The notes under the pieces: model-generated
What the model saw: the letters and a program-made list of their open reading frames with translations, nothing else
Database searches by the model: none
What the model was told of the DNA's origin: nothing
Part shown: positions 4,114 through 34,569 of the stretch, in pieces
Layout: each line of letters starts with the position of its first letter
How positions within the stretch are numbered: the stretch's first letter is position 1
Made by a program: the position numbers and the translations under genes
Origin: an uncultured bacterium
Lineage (GTDB): Bacteria; Patescibacteriota; Microgenomatia; Levybacterales; UBA12049
Length of the DNA stretch: 64,000 nt
Reading direction: 5' to 3'
Assembly (NCBI GenBank): GCA_963826535.1
Contig: CAWGXL010000010.1
Location: forward strand, 362,814-426,813

Positions 4114-4830
4114 ATGTCAGCAGCACTTTCCATCAAACACCTCACCAAACATTATGGCAAAAATATTGCTGTAGATGATCTTTCCCTTGAAGTTAAAAAG
4201 GGGGAATTTTTTTCATTTCTCGGCCCAAATGGAGCCGGTAAAACAACTACCATTCATCTTACCACCGGTATCAGCCGTATGGAAAAAGGCACTATTAAAG
4301 TCTTCGGGTTCGATGTAGTAAAAGATTATCGTGAAGCCCGCAAGAAAATTGGACTCTCACCTCAAGAATTTAACACAGATTTTTTCGGAAAGGTTACAAA
4401 TATTTTAGACAACGTAGCAGGATTCTATGGAATGCCCGGCAGTGCAAGGAAAAAACGCATAGGAGAACTGCTAGAGCAATTTAACCTAAAAGACCATGCC
4501 AATAAACAATTTAACCAACTCTCAGGAGGACTAAAAAGACGTGTCATGCTTGCCCGGGCAATGGTTCATGACCCTGAACTTCTCATTCTCGATGAGCCAA
4601 CAGCCGGTGTTGATGTAAATTTACGTATAGAATTATGGCAACACCTAAGAGATCTCAACAAAGCCGGTAAAACAATTTTCCTTACTACACATTATCTCGA
4701 AGAAGTCGAAGCTTTAGCCAAACGTATAGCAATTATTAACAGAGGAAATATTGTCAAAATTGGAAACAAAAATGAATTTATGGGCAAAGGTAAAAAACTG
4801 GAAGCGACATACCTTAAACTAACACAATAA
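4114..4830 (+). CDS. ABC transporter ATP-binding protein
   Basis: Walker A GPNGAGKTT, signature LSGGLKRR, Walker B LLILDEPTAG. Confidence 0.9.
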   Translation: MSAALSIKHLTKHYGKNIAVDDLSLEVKKGEFFSFLGPNGAGKTTTIHLTTGISRMEKGTIKVFGFDVVKDYREARKKIGLSPQEFNTDFFGKVTNILDNVAGFYGMPGSARKKRIGELLEQFNLKDHANKQFNQLSGGLKRRVMLARAMVHDPELLILDEPTAGVDVNLRIELWQHLRDLNKAGKTIFLTTHYLEEVEALAKRIAIINRGNIVKIGNKNEFMGKGKKLEATYLKLTQ

Positions 4831-4844
4831 TTTAAATCTTAACT

Positions 4845-5606
4845 ATGAACTGGATCGGACTTAATACATTAGTCAAACAAGAAATACAACGCACATTACG
4901 CGTAGCAATTCAAACGCTCGTAACTCCCTGGATAAGCGCTGTACTCTTTATTTTTGTATTTGGATCCGTATTAGGAAGCAGAATTGACACTATTGAAGGG
5001 ATACGCTATATCCAATTTGTACTTCCGGGTATTCTTATGATGAACGTACTCACCTCAGCCTTCTCCCACTCATCTTCATCAGTATATTTCCAACGCTTTG
5101 TGCGAAATATTGAAGAGATGCTGGTCGCACCCTTATCACACGCAGAAATGATCTTTGGCTACCTTGCCGGAGCCGTTGCACGTGCCTTAATAGTGGGTAT
5201 TGGAATATTAATAATTGGCGTCGCTTTCAACGCGCTTACTTTATACAATGTACCACTATTTTTATTTTATATCATAGGTGTATCAATAATCTTCGGCCTT
5301 CTCGGTATCCTGATAGGCTTATGGTCAAGCAATTTTGAACAGCTTAATCTACTTAACACATTTATACTTATGCCGCTTTCATTTCTAGGGGGCATGTTCA
5401 ATTCAGTCCAAATGCTTCCTTCATTCCTACAACCCTACGCCTATTTCAACCCGCTTCTATACTTCAATGATGGCGTCCGCTATTCCATGACCGGCTTCTC
5501 AGAAACAAATATCGCCGTCGGTATGAGCATCATTGTCATTTCAATAATAATCCTTTTCGCACTTACCTGGCACCTCTTTACAATAGGTTGGAGATTAAGA
5601 ACTTAA
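4845..5606 (+). CDS. ABC-2 type transporter permease
   Basis: Six predicted TM helices; immediately downstream of the ABC ATPase; ABC-2 family layout. Confidence 0.75.
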   Translation: MNWIGLNTLVKQEIQRTLRVAIQTLVTPWISAVLFIFVFGSVLGSRIDTIEGIRYIQFVLPGILMMNVLTSAFSHSSSSVYFQRFVRNIEEMLVAPLSHAEMIFGYLAGAVARALIVGIGILIIGVAFNALTLYNVPLFLFYIIGVSIIFGLLGILIGLWSSNFEQLNLLNTFILMPLSFLGGMFNSVQMLPSFLQPYAYFNPLLYFNDGVRYSMTGFSETNIAVGMSIIVISIIILFALTWHLFTIGWRLRT

Positions 5607-28490: not shown

Positions 28491-28551
28491 AATTAAACCT
28501 GGTCTTGTGCCTCTCTTGCATTGTACTTCATATTTTCTTTATACTCAAGAT

Positions 28552-29721
28552 ATGAGTCTGCATGAGACAACAGAGTTGGTTAAGAAAACAGGAATAGGCA
28601 GCGCAATAGGAATCGCAGGTATTGTTTTCATTGTCATTTTAATTCGCGTTGGAATAATGGTAAAAAATTATTATTTTCCACCAAAAGTAGATCCTCCTAC
28701 ACAAGTCTATGGTCTGCTTCCTTCATTACAATTTCCGCAAAACGTAGTGGATTCCAATTTTACCTATACCCTTCAGACGACAACAGGAGAATTGCCTACC
28801 GATTTGCCTGACCGATTAAGCATTTTCCCGGTAATTCATAACGCACCAAATTTCCTTAATTTGGATAAAGTAAAAGCAAAAGTAAATGCACTTGATTTTA
28901 CCTCACCGGATGGACAAACTGCCGTGCCGGAAATTCAACTAACTAATCCTTATTATGAATGGGATGAGTTAAAAGGTTATAATAGGAAGATAATTTTCAA
29001 TATTAATTCATATGATTTTAAAATGACAAGCGATTATTTGTCATCTTTAAAAGTAATTTCAGCCAATTATATATCTAATGAGTTAAGCGCTATAGAAACA
29101 GCTCAGGAATTTTTAGCCACGGCTGGATTAACGCCAAAAGATATTGATCTAAAAAAAACAAATTCTATAAATAATTCTGCTAGTTTTGTGACTTTCCCAC
29201 AATTATTTTCAGTACAATCCGGAATACAAGGCAATACTCTTGTAAAAACTACCAGCCTATCAAAAGCACATGTTATCCGTGTCGATTTTTACCAAAAGGA
29301 TGTAGAGTATGAAATGAACACAGGAGAAGCAGCAGAATTTAAGCCAAAAATTAATCTAAAGTTACCCATCCTCTATCCCAACCCCCCTAACTCTACCATG
29401 AATCTTTGGGTAGCTTCCGGTCCTTCAAAAGCAATCGTAACACAAGCATTCTTTACTCATCAAAGTGTTAAGCTTGATGACGTTACCGCTACTTATCGAA
29501 TAAAAACCCCAAGCGTTGCTTTTTCTGAAGTTAAAGACGGATCATCTTACATAGCGGCTTATTCCGGAACCGATAATAATATACTTATTAAAAACGTATT
29601 TTTAGCATATTATCTTGGCGAAGATCCTCAGGACTATTTAATGCCGGTTTATGTTTTTGAGGGAAATAATGGATTTTTTGCATATGTATCCGCAGTAGCA
29701 GATAACCAAATTCAGAAATAA
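28552..29721 (+). CDS. Membrane-anchored extracytoplasmic protein, unknown function
   Basis: Single N-terminal TM, about 350-aa extracellular region; TTGCAT-17-TATACT promoter immediately upstream of the ATG at 28552 (possibly leaderless). Confidence 0.4.
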   Translation: MSLHETTELVKKTGIGSAIGIAGIVFIVILIRVGIMVKNYYFPPKVDPPTQVYGLLPSLQFPQNVVDSNFTYTLQTTTGELPTDLPDRLSIFPVIHNAPNFLNLDKVKAKVNALDFTSPDGQTAVPEIQLTNPYYEWDELKGYNRKIIFNINSYDFKMTSDYLSSLKVISANYISNELSAIETAQEFLATAGLTPKDIDLKKTNSINNSASFVTFPQLFSVQSGIQGNTLVKTTSLSKAHVIRVDFYQKDVEYEMNTGEAAEFKPKINLKLPILYPNPPNSTMNLWVASGPSKAIVTQAFFTHQSVKLDDVTATYRIKTPSVAFSEVKDGSSYIAAYSGTDNNILIKNVFLAYYLGEDPQDYLMPVYVFEGNNGFFAYVSAVADNQIQK

Positions 29722-30809
29722 TTGCTAATATTTGTCCTCGTTTTAACTGGATACTGCGGTGTTATATAGCGAATATTTTTTGATATTAACGTTAGAAGTG
29801 CTCTTGTATCTGTAAATCTTTGCTTGCTTTTCATAACTACCACAATAAAAGTATGCCCATTCTCCACTTTTGATGTTACGAGTACCTGTCCTGCCCCTTC
29901 TGTAGTACCTGTTTTAATTCCATTCACACCATCTATACCAAGAAGTTTGTTAAGATTAGTAAGTTGAATTTGCCTTTTCCCGGTTACGTCGTATATATCC
30001 TTTTGTTTGGTTGCAGTTATATCCGCTAGTAATTTATTTTTAACGATTAACGAAGCCAGACGTGACATGTCAGAAACTGTTGAATAGTTACTGTCATCAT
30101 CTAATCCGGCGGGATCTTTAAAATATGTATTGCTTAGATTTAGCTCCCGGGCTTTTTCATTCATTTTCGTTACAAATGCTTCAGATCCTCCCGGATAATT
30201 TTGGGAGATTGCATAAGCAGCTTCATTGGATGATGGAAGAAACATCGCGAAAAGCAAGTCCTTGAAATAATATTTTTCACCTTGCTGAAAACCTAAATTT
30301 GAACCTTCAATTTTTGGCGTGTAGATTGTCAAAACTGAATTTTCCTGAAAATAATCAAGCGCGACGACTGCGGTCATAATTTTGGCTGTAGATGCCATAG
30401 AAAATCGAAGATTTGGATTTTTTGCATGGAGAACTATTTGCGAATCGGCATCGGTAATAATAGCAGCTGATGCGGAAATATCCGGAATAGTGTAGCTATT
30501 CATTAAAGGATATGTGGAAAGTTTAACTCTGTAATCTAATCTATAAAGCTCGTGCTCTTTTATAGTATTTTCATATTGCTGATTAAGATTATGAACTGTT
30601 AAAAAAATGACAAATATAACAATAACTATAAGTCCTAATTGGAGATCAAACTCATATTTTTTAAGGAAAATAAATGGCTGCATAGTGTTCCAAAGTGAAA
30701 CATTGTTATTCTTCTCAGCCTTTTTATGTTCGCGTTGTACTTTATTATATAAGTTTTTGAATTTCTTTGGTTTTAGCATCTTGGTGGATCGAAAATCTTT
30801 CATCAACAC
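29712..30809 (-). CDS. D-alanyl-D-alanine carboxypeptidase (PBP5/6-like, peptidase S11)
   Basis: SxxK (STAK), SxN (SSN), KTG (KTGTT) motifs; N-terminal TM. True start probably internal (30779 or 30683) because of overlap with the downstream ligase gene. Confidence 0.75.
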   Translation of the reverse strand: MLMKDFRSTKMLKPKKFKNLYNKVQREHKKAEKNNNVSLWNTMQPFIFLKKYEFDLQLGLIVIVIFVIFLTVHNLNQQYENTIKEHELYRLDYRVKLSTYPLMNSYTIPDISASAAIITDADSQIVLHAKNPNLRFSMASTAKIMTAVVALDYFQENSVLTIYTPKIEGSNLGFQQGEKYYFKDLLFAMFLPSSNEAAYAISQNYPGGSEAFVTKMNEKARELNLSNTYFKDPAGLDDDSNYSTVSDMSRLASLIVKNKLLADITATKQKDIYDVTGKRQIQLTNLNKLLGIDGVNGIKTGTTEGAGQVLVTSKVENGHTFIVVVMKSKQRFTDTRALLTLISKNIRYITPQYPVKTRTNISNYF

Positions 30810-32169
30810 GCTCCATATCTCTCGGAAAAAGAGACGCTTCCCTTACATTGGAAAGTCCCATTACTTTCATAGTTATCCTTTCCAGCCCAAAGGAAAATCC
30901 CCCTTCCGGTGGCATGCCATAACGGAATGCCTGCAAATAAATTTCAAACTGTTTAGGATCCATCCCTCGATCTTTGATAGCGTCAATTAATTTTTTATAA
31001 TCATCAATACGCTGACTACCACTCATTATCTCTACACCTCTGAATAACAAATCATAACTCAAGCTAAATTCAGGATTTTTTGGATCCGGCATTGTATAAA
31101 ATGAGCGTTTTAAAGTAGGGAAGTGTGTAATTGTAACAAAATCACTTTTATGTTTCTTTTTTGCCCACATACAAATATCAACTTCGTCTTGCGGGGCCAG
31201 ATCTTTTTCACGACGCACATCCCGGCCAAATTCTTTAAAAATAATTTCCTGAGCTTCGCGTAAAGTTAACCGGGGAATCTTGCCAAATAGTATTGGTTCA
31301 ATATCGTATTTTATTTGAAAATCCATCGATACTTTTTCTGTATACTTTAGTGTCTCTACTGCAACCTCCTCAAATAAATCTAGTAAATCTGTAAAAGTAA
31401 CAAATGCGAATTCGCAATCCATTTGAGTTGTCTCGGTTAAATGACGGGTGGTAACTGAGGGCTCAGCCCGGTAGGCATGAGCTATAGTAAAGACACGTTC
31501 AAATACGGCAACCATAATTTGCTTGTAAAGCTGCGGGCTTTGTGTAAGAAATGCTTTATGTTCAAAATAATCAATCATAAATACTTCTGCTCCCCCCTCA
31601 GTGGCACTTGCAGCAATAGTTGGCACTACAATTTCTATACATTCCAGCTTCTGACTGATCCGTCTAAAACCTTCCAGAATTGCGCTTTGAATTTTGAATA
31701 TAGACTGAATCCGTGCGTGGCGAAGTGTAAGGGATCGATTATCAAGAAGAGTAGGTAATTCAAGATTAAGAATATCCTGTCCCATATCAAACGGTAGGGT
31801 AGCTGCTTGAGCAAAAATTTCAGCCTCAGTAGCCTCCAATTCAACCGTACCGCTTATAATTTTTGGATTAATCAGCCTATCAGGCCTATTATTTACTTTA
31901 CCGCTTATAGAAACAACATCCTCAGGATGAAATTCACTGGCAAGCTTGTGAGCCTCTACAGATACCTTCGGATTGAAAACCACTTGCAACAACCCCGTAC
32001 GGTCACGAATGTCTATAAAAATGAGCTTACCATGATCCCGTCGTGCCTGAACCCAGCCCTGAACCAAGACCTCGTTATTTATTTCTTTCACCGTATCCCT
32101 CACTAATATTCTTGCTTTTTGTTTAACCATAAATAAATTACCCGCCTTCAGTATATCCTTCCCGCCCAC
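30745..32169 (-). CDS. asnS/aspS: Class IIb aminoacyl-tRNA ligase, aspartate/asparagine type (AspRS type 2 or AsnRS)
   Basis: N-terminal OB anticodon-binding domain (VLVQGWV...RDHGKLIFIDIRD); class II motifs YRAE and GGFSFGLERI. Confidence 0.8.
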   Translation of the reverse strand: MGGKDILKAGNLFMVKQKARILVRDTVKEINNEVLVQGWVQARRDHGKLIFIDIRDRTGLLQVVFNPKVSVEAHKLASEFHPEDVVSISGKVNNRPDRLINPKIISGTVELEATEAEIFAQAATLPFDMGQDILNLELPTLLDNRSLTLRHARIQSIFKIQSAILEGFRRISQKLECIEIVVPTIAASATEGGAEVFMIDYFEHKAFLTQSPQLYKQIMVAVFERVFTIAHAYRAEPSVTTRHLTETTQMDCEFAFVTFTDLLDLFEEVAVETLKYTEKVSMDFQIKYDIEPILFGKIPRLTLREAQEIIFKEFGRDVRREKDLAPQDEVDICMWAKKKHKSDFVTITHFPTLKRSFYTMPDPKNPEFSLSYDLLFRGVEIMSGSQRIDDYKKLIDAIKDRGMDPKQFEIYLQAFRYGMPPEGGFSFGLERITMKVMGLSNVREASLFPRDMERVDERFSIHQDAKTKEIQKLI

Positions 32170-32175
32170 ATCCTT

Positions 32176-32262
32176 GTCATTCCCGCGCCTGCCCGCCTAT
32201 GGAGGGAAGGCGGGAATCCAGAACTTTATTTGTATAGATTCCCATTTTCATAGGAATGACAT
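32176..32262. repeat. GC-rich palindromic repeat (MITE/REP-like), copy 1: GTCATTCCCGCG...GGCGGGAATCCAGAA ... TAGATTCCC...GGGAATGACA
   Basis: Terminal inverted repeat TGTCATTCCC/GGGAATGACA; internal CCCGCC/GGCGGG hairpin; second copy at 37701..37813. Confidence 0.6.
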
Positions 32263-32293
32263 CGAGAATTTATTGTACAACTAAATTAGCCTC

Positions 32294-32323
32294 TTGACAA
32301 GAAGCTTAACAATTTATATAATT
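32294..32323 (+). promoter_or_regulatory. Consensus-like sigma70 promoter (TTGACA-18-TATAAT)
   Basis: cTTGACAagaagcttaacaatttaTATAATtt; near-identical to 34169..34197. Confidence 0.7.
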
Positions 32324-32383
32324 TAACCTATAAATACTATAAGACTCTTAGCTCAACAGCAAATATTTGTTACTATTAACTTT

Positions 32384-32467
32384 CTCCTCCGCACAGTTGT
32401 GTAGGAGTTTGATAGAGAATATTAAACAAAATTCACTATCAATCTCCTCAAAAGAGGAGATTTTTTT
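32384..32467 (+). promoter_or_regulatory. Structured 5' leader with mutually exclusive hairpins: P1 (CTCCTCCGCAC...GTGTAGGAG), antiterminator (GGAGTTTGATAG with CTATCAATCTCC), intrinsic terminator (ATCTCCTCAAAAGAGGAGAT + T7)
   Basis: Pairings read directly; second copy with compensatory changes at 34256..34340. Confidence 0.6.
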
Positions 32468-32490
32468 AAATTGTTCGAAAGGAATAAATA

Positions 32491-34080
32491 ATGAATTCAG
32501 AAAGAGATATTGTACATCAGAAAGATATTAAGCCTAATTCTACACCCCCCACCAGGGATAGAACAAATGTTGGGGAAAGAGTATTGACTGTGGTGCCAAC
32601 CCCTGACAAATTTCAACCTGATACTTCTCAAGATCAAGACATTTCTCATGTTCGACTCTCTATGTATAAGCCAGGCGCACTTGAAAAAGGTGAACTCGAC
32701 AAACTAACAAAACAATTCTTCGGAAATAGGGCAAAATGGCTTAAAGTATACACAAATGATGACGAGCGTTTTGCGAAACGCGAAGCTAAAAGAAAAGAAA
32801 AATATCTTAACTCTAACCCGGAAGTTAACAGTGATACTTACGATCGCAATCGTCACGTAAACTTACGCGAGCGCAGAAAATCAGCTAGAAGAGGAATAAA
32901 TAATCATTTTTATAATGCCGTAGAAGAACGATTTGAAGTAATAGATGAAAGCCCTAGGAAATTTGCTGACAGACAGTATAAGCAAGCTACAGATGCCATA
33001 AGATCTGTTGCTGACACTCTTTACCCGGAAAGTGGAATAATAGGCTTAAGAAATGAGACAGGTTTAATTCCTATTAGTCCGGCGATGGTTATTGAAGAAA
33101 TCTCATCAAATAAAACATCCTCTATCTTAAGGCGCGAAGAAATATTACGTCAGCTAAATGCATATACTTCAGCAGAATTGGATAAAAGAAATGGTAAACT
33201 AGAAGCTGAGAGGAAACTCGCTCAAATTCAACATCTACTTAACCGGAAACTATTCGAAGAGCCTATCGGTGCAACAGAAAATGTGGAAGTAGATGCACTT
33301 TATGATAATAAAACAAATGCTGTTGAATTCATAGATGGAATTGATGGTCGTGTATATAAAGATTATGTCCCTGAAGGAAAACATGTAAAAACTCGCGAAT
33401 TGACCATGCGGAAACTAAGAGACACTGATATTCGTATTTATACTAATCCTGATGTTAAGAAACAAGACAGTTCAATTGTCAAAGCCATAAGAAAAACTCA
33501 AGAAGCTGTAAAAGAGGGAAAAGGAGACGAAATTAGAGTTGAAGATTATGTTCAAGACACCCATAGAGTACTGTTTGCTGTAGATGGAGGGCCAGAAGAA
33601 TTAGATGAAGTAGTTGAAAAGATTAAGAATCTTTTGGTGGATCCTGATAATCAACAATATTTAGCCAAACTTGATAATGCAGATGAACCGATGAGAGGGG
33701 AAGATGGGGAATTAATTGGAAGAGTTGTTTCAGTTAAAGATGATTCTAAAACTAACGGCTATGAGACTCAATCAAAAAATGTAAAATGGACAAGATTGCA
33801 GGTTAAGTTCGACGATCTTATTGTACCAATTGAAATAAAATTTCAGGACATGAGACATTTCCTTCTTGATGAATTCGAAGTTGGCGAGTATGAACCGCAA
33901 AATGGTATTTATTCAGGAGCAGCTCATGATCTATATAGATATAATAGGGCTAAAAGCGTAATCCCATATTTTATCCCGGTTGAGGAACTTGACAAAAAAA
34001 TTGACCTGGACACACTTGCATCAAAAACACAAGAAAATATCGTTTTCAAATTACGTAATCAAACAAGAAAGGTAAAATAA
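32491..34080 (+). CDS. Hypothetical 529-aa cytosolic protein with nucleotidyltransferase-fold motifs (Pol-beta-type hG[KS]...DxD; RelA/SpoT-like GY..S...IEIKFQDM...AHDLYRY)
   Basis: EGKHVKTRELTMRKLRDTDIRIY fits G[KS]-x(9-13)-DhDh. GYETQS + 24 aa + IEIKFQDMRHF...AAHDLYRY parallels the RSH synthetase GYRSLH/EIQIRT..M..WA..EH..YK spacing. Highly charged N-terminal 290 aa with no match. Confidence 0.35.
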   Translation: MNSERDIVHQKDIKPNSTPPTRDRTNVGERVLTVVPTPDKFQPDTSQDQDISHVRLSMYKPGALEKGELDKLTKQFFGNRAKWLKVYTNDDERFAKREAKRKEKYLNSNPEVNSDTYDRNRHVNLRERRKSARRGINNHFYNAVEERFEVIDESPRKFADRQYKQATDAIRSVADTLYPESGIIGLRNETGLIPISPAMVIEEISSNKTSSILRREEILRQLNAYTSAELDKRNGKLEAERKLAQIQHLLNRKLFEEPIGATENVEVDALYDNKTNAVEFIDGIDGRVYKDYVPEGKHVKTRELTMRKLRDTDIRIYTNPDVKKQDSSIVKAIRKTQEAVKEGKGDEIRVEDYVQDTHRVLFAVDGGPEELDEVVEKIKNLLVDPDNQQYLAKLDNADEPMRGEDGELIGRVVSVKDDSKTNGYETQSKNVKWTRLQVKFDDLIVPIEIKFQDMRHFLLDEFEVGEYEPQNGIYSGAAHDLYRYNRAKSVIPYFIPVEELDKKIDLDTLASKTQENIVFKLRNQTRKVK

Positions 34081-34168
34081 AGTCAATGCTAATTTTGTCT
34101 GCTATTTCGTTGCCCTCGCAGAAAAATAAGAGCATAACATTTTCCAAACCTTTATACTTAACAGCATC

Positions 34169-34197
34169 TTGACAAGAAGTTTAACAATTTATATAAT
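34169..34197 (+). promoter_or_regulatory. Second copy of the TTGACA-17/18-TATAAT promoter
   Basis: cTTGACAagaagtttaacaatttaTATAATtt. Confidence 0.7.
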
Positions 34198-34255
34198 TTT
34201 AATTAAGAGGACTATGAAACCAACACAGCAACACCATATTGTTACGTTTAAGCAT

Positions 34256-34340
34256 CTCCTCCGCACTTGTGCGGTAGGAGGTTGATAGTGGAATAGCAAA
34301 CAAAAAAACTATCAATCTCCTCATAAGAGGAGATTTTTTT
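34256..34340 (+). promoter_or_regulatory. Second copy of the structured leader (P1 CTCCTCCGCAC-TTGT-GTGCGGTAGGAGG; antiterminator GGAGGTTGATAG with CTATCAATCTCC; terminator ATCTCCTCATAAGAGGAGAT + T7)
   Basis: Covariation relative to copy 1 preserves pairing (CACAGTTGTGTAG versus CACTTGTGCGGTAG). Confidence 0.6.
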
Positions 34341-34368
34341 ATGATTTTATCAAAGGAGGTGGAAAAAT

Positions 34369-34569
34369 ATGATTAGACATGAAGCATCTAAATACAGAAC
34401 AGATTCTCTGGGGCATAATTGGAGAGCATTACAAAGAGTAGGAATGTTCAATGAGACAAACGGTACAGCAAATTCAGGACCGGAAATACGAGTAATTGGC
34501 GGTAAAGATTACACAGTGAGTGCTGGAGTGATATCTCGCGCTAATGGCGATTACGGACAAAGGAGATGA
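34369..34569 (+). CDS. Hypothetical 66-aa Gly-rich protein sharing the leader and promoter of the 529-aa gene
   Basis: Strong SD AAGGAGGTG 7 nt before the ATG; no recognisable domain. Confidence 0.45.
   Translation: MIRHEASKYRTDSLGHNWRALQRVGMFNETNGTANSGPEIRVIGGKDYTVSAGVISRANGDYGQRR

Follow-up and report, generated by a model that had tools for sequence, protein, structure and literature searches.

A divergent protein family with a predicted RelA/SpoT-synthetase-like fold and an attenuator-like leader in a housekeeping slot of an uncultured Levybacterales bacterium

We analysed a 64,000-nt stretch of DNA (hereafter the window) from an uncultured bacterium of the Patescibacteriota, order Levybacterales, in which an ATG-initiated open reading frame (ORF) of 529 codons lies on the + strand at positions 32491-34080. 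The gene probably specifies a very divergent member of the synthetase branch of the RelA/SpoT homologue (RSH) enzymes, namely an RSH-type pyrophosphokinase. Structure prediction and profile comparison make it highly likely that the family shares the RSH-type fold and is remotely homologous to these enzymes, which lie at the heart of starvation signalling in bacteria and, as recognised more recently, of toxin and anti-phage systems. The protein founds a bacterial family that carries no annotation, and its gene is an inherited chromosomal gene with a conserved attenuator, not a mobile toxin module.

A preliminary description of this DNA, made from the letters alone, had called the ORF and quoted several strings from its product, all of which were located as given (EGKHVKT at residue 295, GYETQS at 423, PIEIKFQ at 446 and AAHDLYRY at 477). 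The protein, 35% of whose residues are charged throughout its length, gave no match against Pfam, NCBIfam, PADLOC, PHROGs or the sequences of the Protein Data Bank (PDB). A word-index homologue search returned a sole relative, P0001, with 51% identity; an exhaustive hidden Markov model (HMM) search seeded with this pair was needed to go further, and it gave a family of 190 representative clusters at E ≤ 1e-3 (115 at E ≤ 1e-10). Most members are 400-630 aa long and align to the C-terminus, from about residue 50 in close members and about residue 130 in distant ones. Two alignments were used below, one of 57 family sequences, to which all column counts (x/57) refer, and one of 90 distant members of about 430 aa. 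No Pfam family was matched consistently by these 147 proteins, and the database sources that name family members label them hypothetical. No relatives were found on genome contigs (two scans) or on metagenome contigs (protein-pattern scans), and literature searches yielded nothing relevant on this family or on RSH enzymes in bacteria of the candidate phyla radiation.

Structure prediction by AlphaFold with the 57-sequence alignment gave a model with a pLDDT of 90.7 and a pTM of 0.86, compared with a pLDDT of only 41.7 for single- or two-sequence input, and the protein was divided accordingly:

32491..34080, + strand: coding sequence of 529 aa, founding member of the unannotated family (ORF call; 190 representative clusters at E ≤ 1e-3)
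32491..32634, + strand: N-terminal tail, residues 1-48, disordered (pLDDT <50) and poorly conserved, gapped in the closest homologues
32635..33255, + strand: all-helical N-domain, residues 49-255 (pLDDT >90, helices within 70-253)
33256..33435, + strand: beta-hairpin extension, residues 256-315, with H298, K300 and R307 (strands 263-272, 278-281 and 297-309)
33436..33990, + strand: predicted RSH-synthetase-like core, residues 316-500, with key residues K323 (33457-33459), K331 (33481-33483), D356 (33556-33558), E448 (33832-33834) and H479 (33925-33927), and further R435, G465, G476, Y482 and R486
33991..34077, + strand: C-terminal helices, residues 501-529 (helix 506-523)

Residues ~316-500 are predicted to adopt the fold of the small alarmone synthetases (SAS). 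The secondary-structure order of the modelled core is beta-alpha-beta-alpha-beta-beta-beta-alpha, which matches the topology of RelQ (5DEC). In each of three structure libraries searched, RSH synthetases ranked top. In the Foldseek search of the PDB, SAS1 and SAS2 chains took the first six places (E 0.009-0.027, probability 0.89-0.97) and SpoT, RelSeq and FaRel2 came next; the top Foldseek match in BFVD was a phage protein named Tas1 (probability 0.92); only RSH proteins exceeded a probability of 0.5. The nucleotidyltransferase-superfamily fold proposed earlier for the C-terminal half is thus supported, in the form of a RelA/SpoT-synthetase-like fold. The N-terminal 290 residues had been described as extremely charged and matching nothing known; the structure search of the helical N-domain likewise gave no match that stands out, but the region is more than merely charged, since the model confidently places a helical domain at residues ~50-255, one that is partly conserved (residues ~130-255 are common to distant members).

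Profile-profile comparison was then considered, using RSH profiles built from YjbM, E. coli RelA (205-387) and B. subtilis Rel (194-374) together with RelQ relatives; the YjbM, RelA and Rel input sequences were confirmed against the PDB, being either exact or taken from PDB alignments. Alignment by hhalign gave P values of 0.007-0.018 for the subfamily of the window and 0.0072 for the full-length distant subfamily, and cropping the latter to its catalytic half gave P = 7.6e-5 (probability 62%, 176 co-linear columns). All runs share one register, which is co-linear across all motifs:

T318-NPDV-K323...S327...K331-AIRK, aligned with RelQ VTGRVK48...S52...K56ARRK
VQD356THRVLF, aligned with RelQ MQD72IAGLRI
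PIE448IKFQ, aligned with RelQ LVE139IQIRT

In this register, K323 and K331 correspond to the ATP-phosphate-binding lysines K48 and K56 of RelQ, and position 321 and S327 to R46 and S52. D356 falls on the Mg2+-binding D72 in every run, E448 on E139, the catalytic Glu of EIQIRT, and H479 on the helix that follows the EIQIRT strand. The equivalent of the ATP helix is therefore predicted to be K323-K335. The preliminary description had placed it at HVKTRELTMRKLR (298-310), which does not agree with the confident model, where residues 297-309 form a beta-strand.

Column conservation follows the same residues. K323, K331, D356 and G465 are invariant among the 57 sequences, and R307 (55/57), E448 (54/57), G476 (55/57) and H479 (52/57) are nearly so; R or K occupies the R435 column in 56/57, Y482 is kept in 43 homologues, and H298 and K300 of the hairpin in 42/57 and 50/57, respectively. 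Other RSH-like positions are looser in this alignment, with Ser at 327 in 25/57, Arg at 321 in 17/57, and R (39 sequences) or G (16) three residues after D356. Among the 90 distant members the invariant residues are the equivalent K, K, D and E. Arg is the consensus at position 321 in this subfamily, whose consensus contains RxK and DxxG as in RSH enzymes, the RSH-type motifs RxK...S...K and DxxGx[RK] being present, and one distant member, P0037, bears overt RSH motifs (YTRRQKEHISSVEKAIRKA and DSCGIRFVV). A parallel with RelQ had been drawn earlier from GYETQS, PIEIKFQ and AAH..Y. The latter two hold, with E448, G476, H479 and Y482 conserved, whereas GYETQS is poorly kept (G423 in 22/57, Y424 in only 4/57).

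Several results weigh against an RSH assignment and were considered together. The profile-profile support is weak in most runs, and sequence-to-profile methods did not detect RSH: PF04607 was matched at E ≤ 1 by none of the 147 members and at E ≤ 10 not by the 529-aa protein, and the family profiles matched no PDB sequence, RSH chains included. The residue equivalences to RelQ rest on the alignments and on strand order. Furthermore, the acceptor-stacking Tyr of RSH enzymes is not conserved in the family; the column of position 426, aligned to RelQ Y116 in the cropped run of the distant subfamily, is mostly Gly (G30/D8/T7). In FaRel2, D90 and Y128 were reported as essential residues that SAS enzymes strongly conserve (bioRxiv 10.1101/2021.04.30.441581); the equivalent of D90 is invariant in the present family, and the Tyr column holds mostly Gly, Asp or Glu. 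An aromatic residue is found at position 433 in 40/57, next to R435, and may substitute for the stacking Tyr.

The best structural matches, RelQ/SAS1 (YjbM, 5DEC/5DED) and RelP/SAS2 (6EWZ, 6FGX), align co-linearly with the 529-aa protein over a K...S...K helix, a single Mg2+-binding Asp starting the next strand, a Glu in the last strand but one and the H..Y of the helix after it; the distant subfamily has RxK and DxxG[IM][RK] as well. Unlike SAS enzymes, however, the family shows only about 15% identity to them, has no PF04607 match and conserves neither the Y116-type Tyr nor the Q and R of EIQIRT (the columns of K450 and Q452 are variable). It also carries an insertion of about 10 residues (463-475) that includes the invariant G465, a beta-hairpin with the conserved H298, K300 and R307, and a helical N-domain of about 200 residues where SAS enzymes have short N-terminal helices, giving 430-630 aa in total compared to about 210 aa. 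Compared to the long RSH enzymes (RelA, Rel and SpoT), only ~150-170 residues align, so that the N-domain does not superpose on their HD hydrolase domain; the HD motif and the regulatory TGS, ZFD and ACT domains are absent from the family.

Since invariance falls precisely on the ATP/Mg catalytic set, the enzyme is rather likely to be catalytically active. It would bind ATP-Mg2+ and move the beta,gamma-pyrophosphate to a 3'-OH acceptor. Given the non-conserved stacking Tyr, the family-specific basic residues H298, K300, R307, R435 and R486 and the additional N-domain, this acceptor may differ from GDP/GTP, and could be the 3' end of an RNA or a nucleotide of another kind. The acceptor site differs from that of all characterised RSH enzymes.

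A dedicated attenuator had been proposed upstream of the gene, together with co-regulation of a downstream 66-aa ORF. Both proposals find support in the sequence, in which the same promoter-leader cassette precedes the two reading frames:

32294..32322, + strand: promoter of the 529-aa gene, sigma-70 type, TTGACA-17-TATAAT, 12/12 consensus
32384..32469, + strand: leader/attenuator copy 1, with stem P1 (CUCCUCCGCAC...GUGUAGGAG, 32384-32407), P2 (32410-32441) and an intrinsic terminator (32441-32462 plus U-run)
34169..34197, + strand: promoter copy 2, same hexamer pair, 12/12 consensus
34214..34342, + strand: leader/attenuator copy 2, with a leader ORF of 23 codons (MKPTQQHHIVTFKHLLRTCAVGG and stop, 34214-34285) ending in the P1 3' arm, P2, and a terminator (34314-34335 plus U-run)
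34369..34569, + strand: 66-aa ORF with a strong Shine-Dalgarno sequence (AAGGAGGTG), an orphan that matches nothing in the database but itself

The cassette of about 180 nt recurs some 1.87 kb downstream of its first copy, at 34163-34341, with 74-82% identity. The copy 1 leader folds better than all of 200 shuffles (z -3.45). An alternative antiterminator can be drawn in which the 3' arm of P1 (GGAG of the CUCC...GGAG stem) and P2 pair with the terminator 5' arm AAUCUCC, and folds computed without the terminator 3' arm show this structure in both window copies as well as in the orthologous loci L006 and L007. The layout of promoter, leader and terminator is also present at L003, L006, L007 and L008, and at L009/L010 a terminator is visible within the 41 nt upstream of the family gene, so that six orthologous loci show the attenuator or its terminator. 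Window copy 2, L003, L006, L007 and L008 have ATG-initiated leader ORFs of 15-23 codons, which start a few bases past the predicted transcription start and end in or near P1. Within ~140 kb comprising the window and related loci, every occurrence of the motif CTCC-N(3-24)-GGRGAT5+ lies immediately before a family gene or the 66-aa ORF.

These leaders resemble the trp, pheA and his attenuators in having a promoter, an ORF of 15-23 codons near the 5' end, four segments with alternative 1:2, 2:3 and 3:4 pairings, and a U-tailed terminator just before the ribosome-binding site of the regulated gene; there is also a weak, sub-threshold similarity to Rfam Phe_leader (29 bits versus a gathering cutoff of 55). 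The most economical reading, although not shown, would be a translation-coupled attenuator. The default fold, consisting of P1 and the terminator, would keep the 529-aa gene off, and disruption of P1 would free GGAG to pair with AAUCUCC and allow read-through. The likeliest trigger would be a ribosome on the short leader ORF present in most copies, in which case production of the enzyme would be coupled to translation status. The cassette appears to have been duplicated in this genome, placing the orphan 66-aa ORF under the same signal.

Some features of the leaders speak against this reading. Unlike in the trp, pheA and his systems, neither a run of a single regulatory codon or amino acid nor a shared repeated codon class is present in the leader ORFs, no amino acid recurs consistently, and the copy before the 529-aa gene has no ATG-initiated leader ORF, the homologous frame being open. 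The leader is moreover absent at two close orthologues, L001 and L002, and the attenuator is also missing at L131. RNAalifold applied to six leaders supported the terminator only and gave no covariation, the stems AAUCUCC/GGAGAUU being conserved in sequence rather than covarying. No Rfam family was matched by the leaders at the gathering or E-value thresholds, and T-box and known riboswitch readings were dropped on this ground. In metagenomes the terminator pattern CAATCTCC-N-GGAGATTTTTT was matched at no fewer than 120 loci, and none of the matches listed encodes a family member; the pattern alone is too generic to retrieve such leaders from metagenomes.

Three further observations concern this upstream region. 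The two cassette copies differ in that the one at the 66-aa ORF keeps an ATG leader ORF with a Shine-Dalgarno sequence, whereas the one at the 529-aa gene (32366-32389, compared with 34214-34285) has lost the ATG and a His codon, a contrast that runs opposite to expectation for a degenerate duplicate at the 66-aa ORF. The -35 region lies in a palindrome (32288-32306, CTCTTGACAAGAAG) with TTGACA on the + strand and, on the - strand, TTGTCA-17-TACAAT (32300-32272, 10/12); the 529-aa gene and the divergent aspartyl-tRNA synthetase (AspRS) gene may thus be served by a common bidirectional promoter region. In the otherwise AT-rich AspRS 5' region, positions 32165-32215 hold an inverted repeat rich in GC, ATTCCCGC...GCGGGAAT, and its - strand fold is no better than shuffles (z -1.29).

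The gene is set among housekeeping genes. The gene order in the window is Peptidase_S11 (-), AspRS (-), the 529-aa gene (+), RecJ (-), the CCA-adding enzyme (+) and an ABC transporter (+), in a genome of 36% GC with densely packed housekeeping genes; no canonical RSH gene was found elsewhere within the 64-kb window. The family gene occupies the same slot, between Peptidase_S11-AspRS and RecJ-CCA enzyme, in the window and on eight other contigs (L001, L002, L003/L004, L006, L007, L008, the JGI contig of P0003, and L131/L132), at family-protein identities down to 24%, and is inherited vertically in a fixed slot. In most of these loci RecJ abuts or overlaps it. Since the flanking genes are divergent or convergent, there is no operon link, and no conserved partner and no conserved co-oriented neighbour was found among the orthologous loci. 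Identity across the loci is 24-51% for the family gene, 55-65% for RecJ and 67-71% for the CCA enzyme, indicating that the family gene evolves about twice as fast as its neighbours. The 66-aa ORF, by comparison, has no homologue in an index of 5.8 billion proteins and is absent from all orthologous loci (tblastn negative); it had been called Gly-rich, which its 13.6% Gly hardly justifies.

This setting bears on the earlier suggestion of a toxSAS/CapRel-like or CD-NTase-like module. A toxSAS/CapRel-like effector, in a toxin-antitoxin or anti-phage role, would, when triggered, pyrophosphorylate tRNA CCA ends and block translation, with the 66-aa protein or the fused N-domain acting as antitoxin. 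The fold is indeed nearest to SAS enzymes, the toxic members FaRel2 (8PU3/8PU4), CapRel (7ZTB), PhRel2 and Tas1 (6OX6) belong to the same fold class, and FaRel2, CapRel and Tas1 are among the structural matches. Many basic residues surround the predicted site, the protein diverges at roughly twice the rate of RecJ and the CCA enzyme (24-51% versus 55-71% identity), its expression appears to be tightly gated by the leader, and an additional domain is fused to the enzyme, as in fused CapRel. However, the gene is not mobile, its slot between housekeeping genes being identical across the nine orthologous loci; it has no antitoxin or immunity neighbour and no conserved adjacent small gene, the 66-aa ORF being unique to this genome; neither PADLOC nor PHROG gave a match; and the equivalent of the stacking Tyr essential in FaRel2 (Y128) is not conserved. 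These observations speak against a toxin-antitoxin, CBASS-like or defence-island arrangement, and a toxic effector is distinctly unlikely.

We consider it similarly improbable that the protein is a true nucleotidyltransferase, transferring NMP in the manner of CD-NTase/OAS-like, MenT-like or terminal-transferase-like enzymes rather than acting as a pyrophosphokinase. A Pol-beta signature, hG[GS]...DhDh, had been read at residues 295-320, which lie on the beta-hairpin extension. The literal motif is not present, as G296 is followed by K and not by G or S, and its residues are lost in the 57 homologues (G296 kept in 24, K297 in 6, D311 in 10 with Gly in 28, and D313 in 8 with Gly in 33), a loss set beforehand as the test against this claim. 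Neither hG[GS] nor a [DE]h[DE]h pair is conserved. Instead there is, as in RSH enzymes, a single invariant Asp (D356, with T and H as the next residues) and no adjacent second carboxylate. Structural matches above a Foldseek probability of 0.5 are confined to RSH proteins, the distant subfamily displays the RSH-type motifs given above, and no CBASS-type effector or other partner is encoded nearby.

A catalytically dead scaffold, retaining the fold for nucleotide or RNA binding, would fit the lost stacking Tyr, the lost Q and R of EIQIRT and the fast divergence, but is very unlikely because the invariants across ~150 very divergent sequences are the catalytic and ATP-binding residues K323, K331, D356 and E448, the pattern of purifying selection on catalysis.

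An RSH-type pyrophosphokinase accordingly remains our preferred reading. RSH surveys rely on the RelA_SpoT HMM, which misses the family entirely. Its ~190 clusters keep the ATP/Mg catalytic set and not the acceptor-recognition residue, extending the sequence space of the superfamily, possibly to a new product or target. That the gene has an attenuator of its own and is passed on vertically next to genes for an aminoacyl-tRNA synthetase, RecJ and the CCA enzyme points to a role in physiological regulation and away from a selfish element. Taken further, these elements could amount to a lineage-wide, unrecognised RSH branch that has replaced the acceptor-binding Tyr and acquired a helical domain and a basic hairpin. 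It would pyrophosphorylate an acceptor that no characterised RSH enzyme uses, be it a different nucleotide messenger or a particular RNA 3' end, and its synthesis would be switched on by ribosomes on the leader ORF, giving a minimal stringent-type response at the level of transcription in small-genome bacteria; this extension is speculative and unlikely. With one protein, four predicted catalytic residues and few candidate acceptors, the gene is a well-defined and inexpensive target for biochemistry.

Minor observations were made on the surrounding block. The AspRS of the window (30745-32169, -) is 62-78% identical to those of L001, L002 and L131, and only 31-33% identical to those of L003, L006, L007 and L008, where RecJ and the CCA enzyme show 55-71%; this looks like an in-place swap of AspRS for a different type within the lineage. 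A 404-aa ORF (28507-29721, +), without Pfam match and with a hydrophobic stretch predicted near its N-terminus, may, judged by position, be a second conserved unknown of the block, as ORFs of 349-386 aa without Pfam match lie between the glutamyl-tRNA synthetase gene and Peptidase_S11 in L003, L004, L006, L007, L131 and L132. On the P0003 contig (JGI 3300056388), a 204-aa ORF without Pfam match (4496-5110, same strand) separates the family gene from RecJ, in the position of the orphan 66-aa ORF of the window, and the slot between the two genes seems to accept lineage-specific insertions. The distant member P0060 (430 aa, GCA_021733405.1, locus L005) is found in a different neighbourhood with tryptophanyl-tRNA synthetase, Trp_repressor and tRNA_bind genes. 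A structured leader of unrelated sequence (1880-1985 of L005), with a terminator CACCGCTTCTTTTCCAAGAAGCGGTTTTTTT directly before the P0060 start codon, suggests that attenuation control is recurrent in the family.

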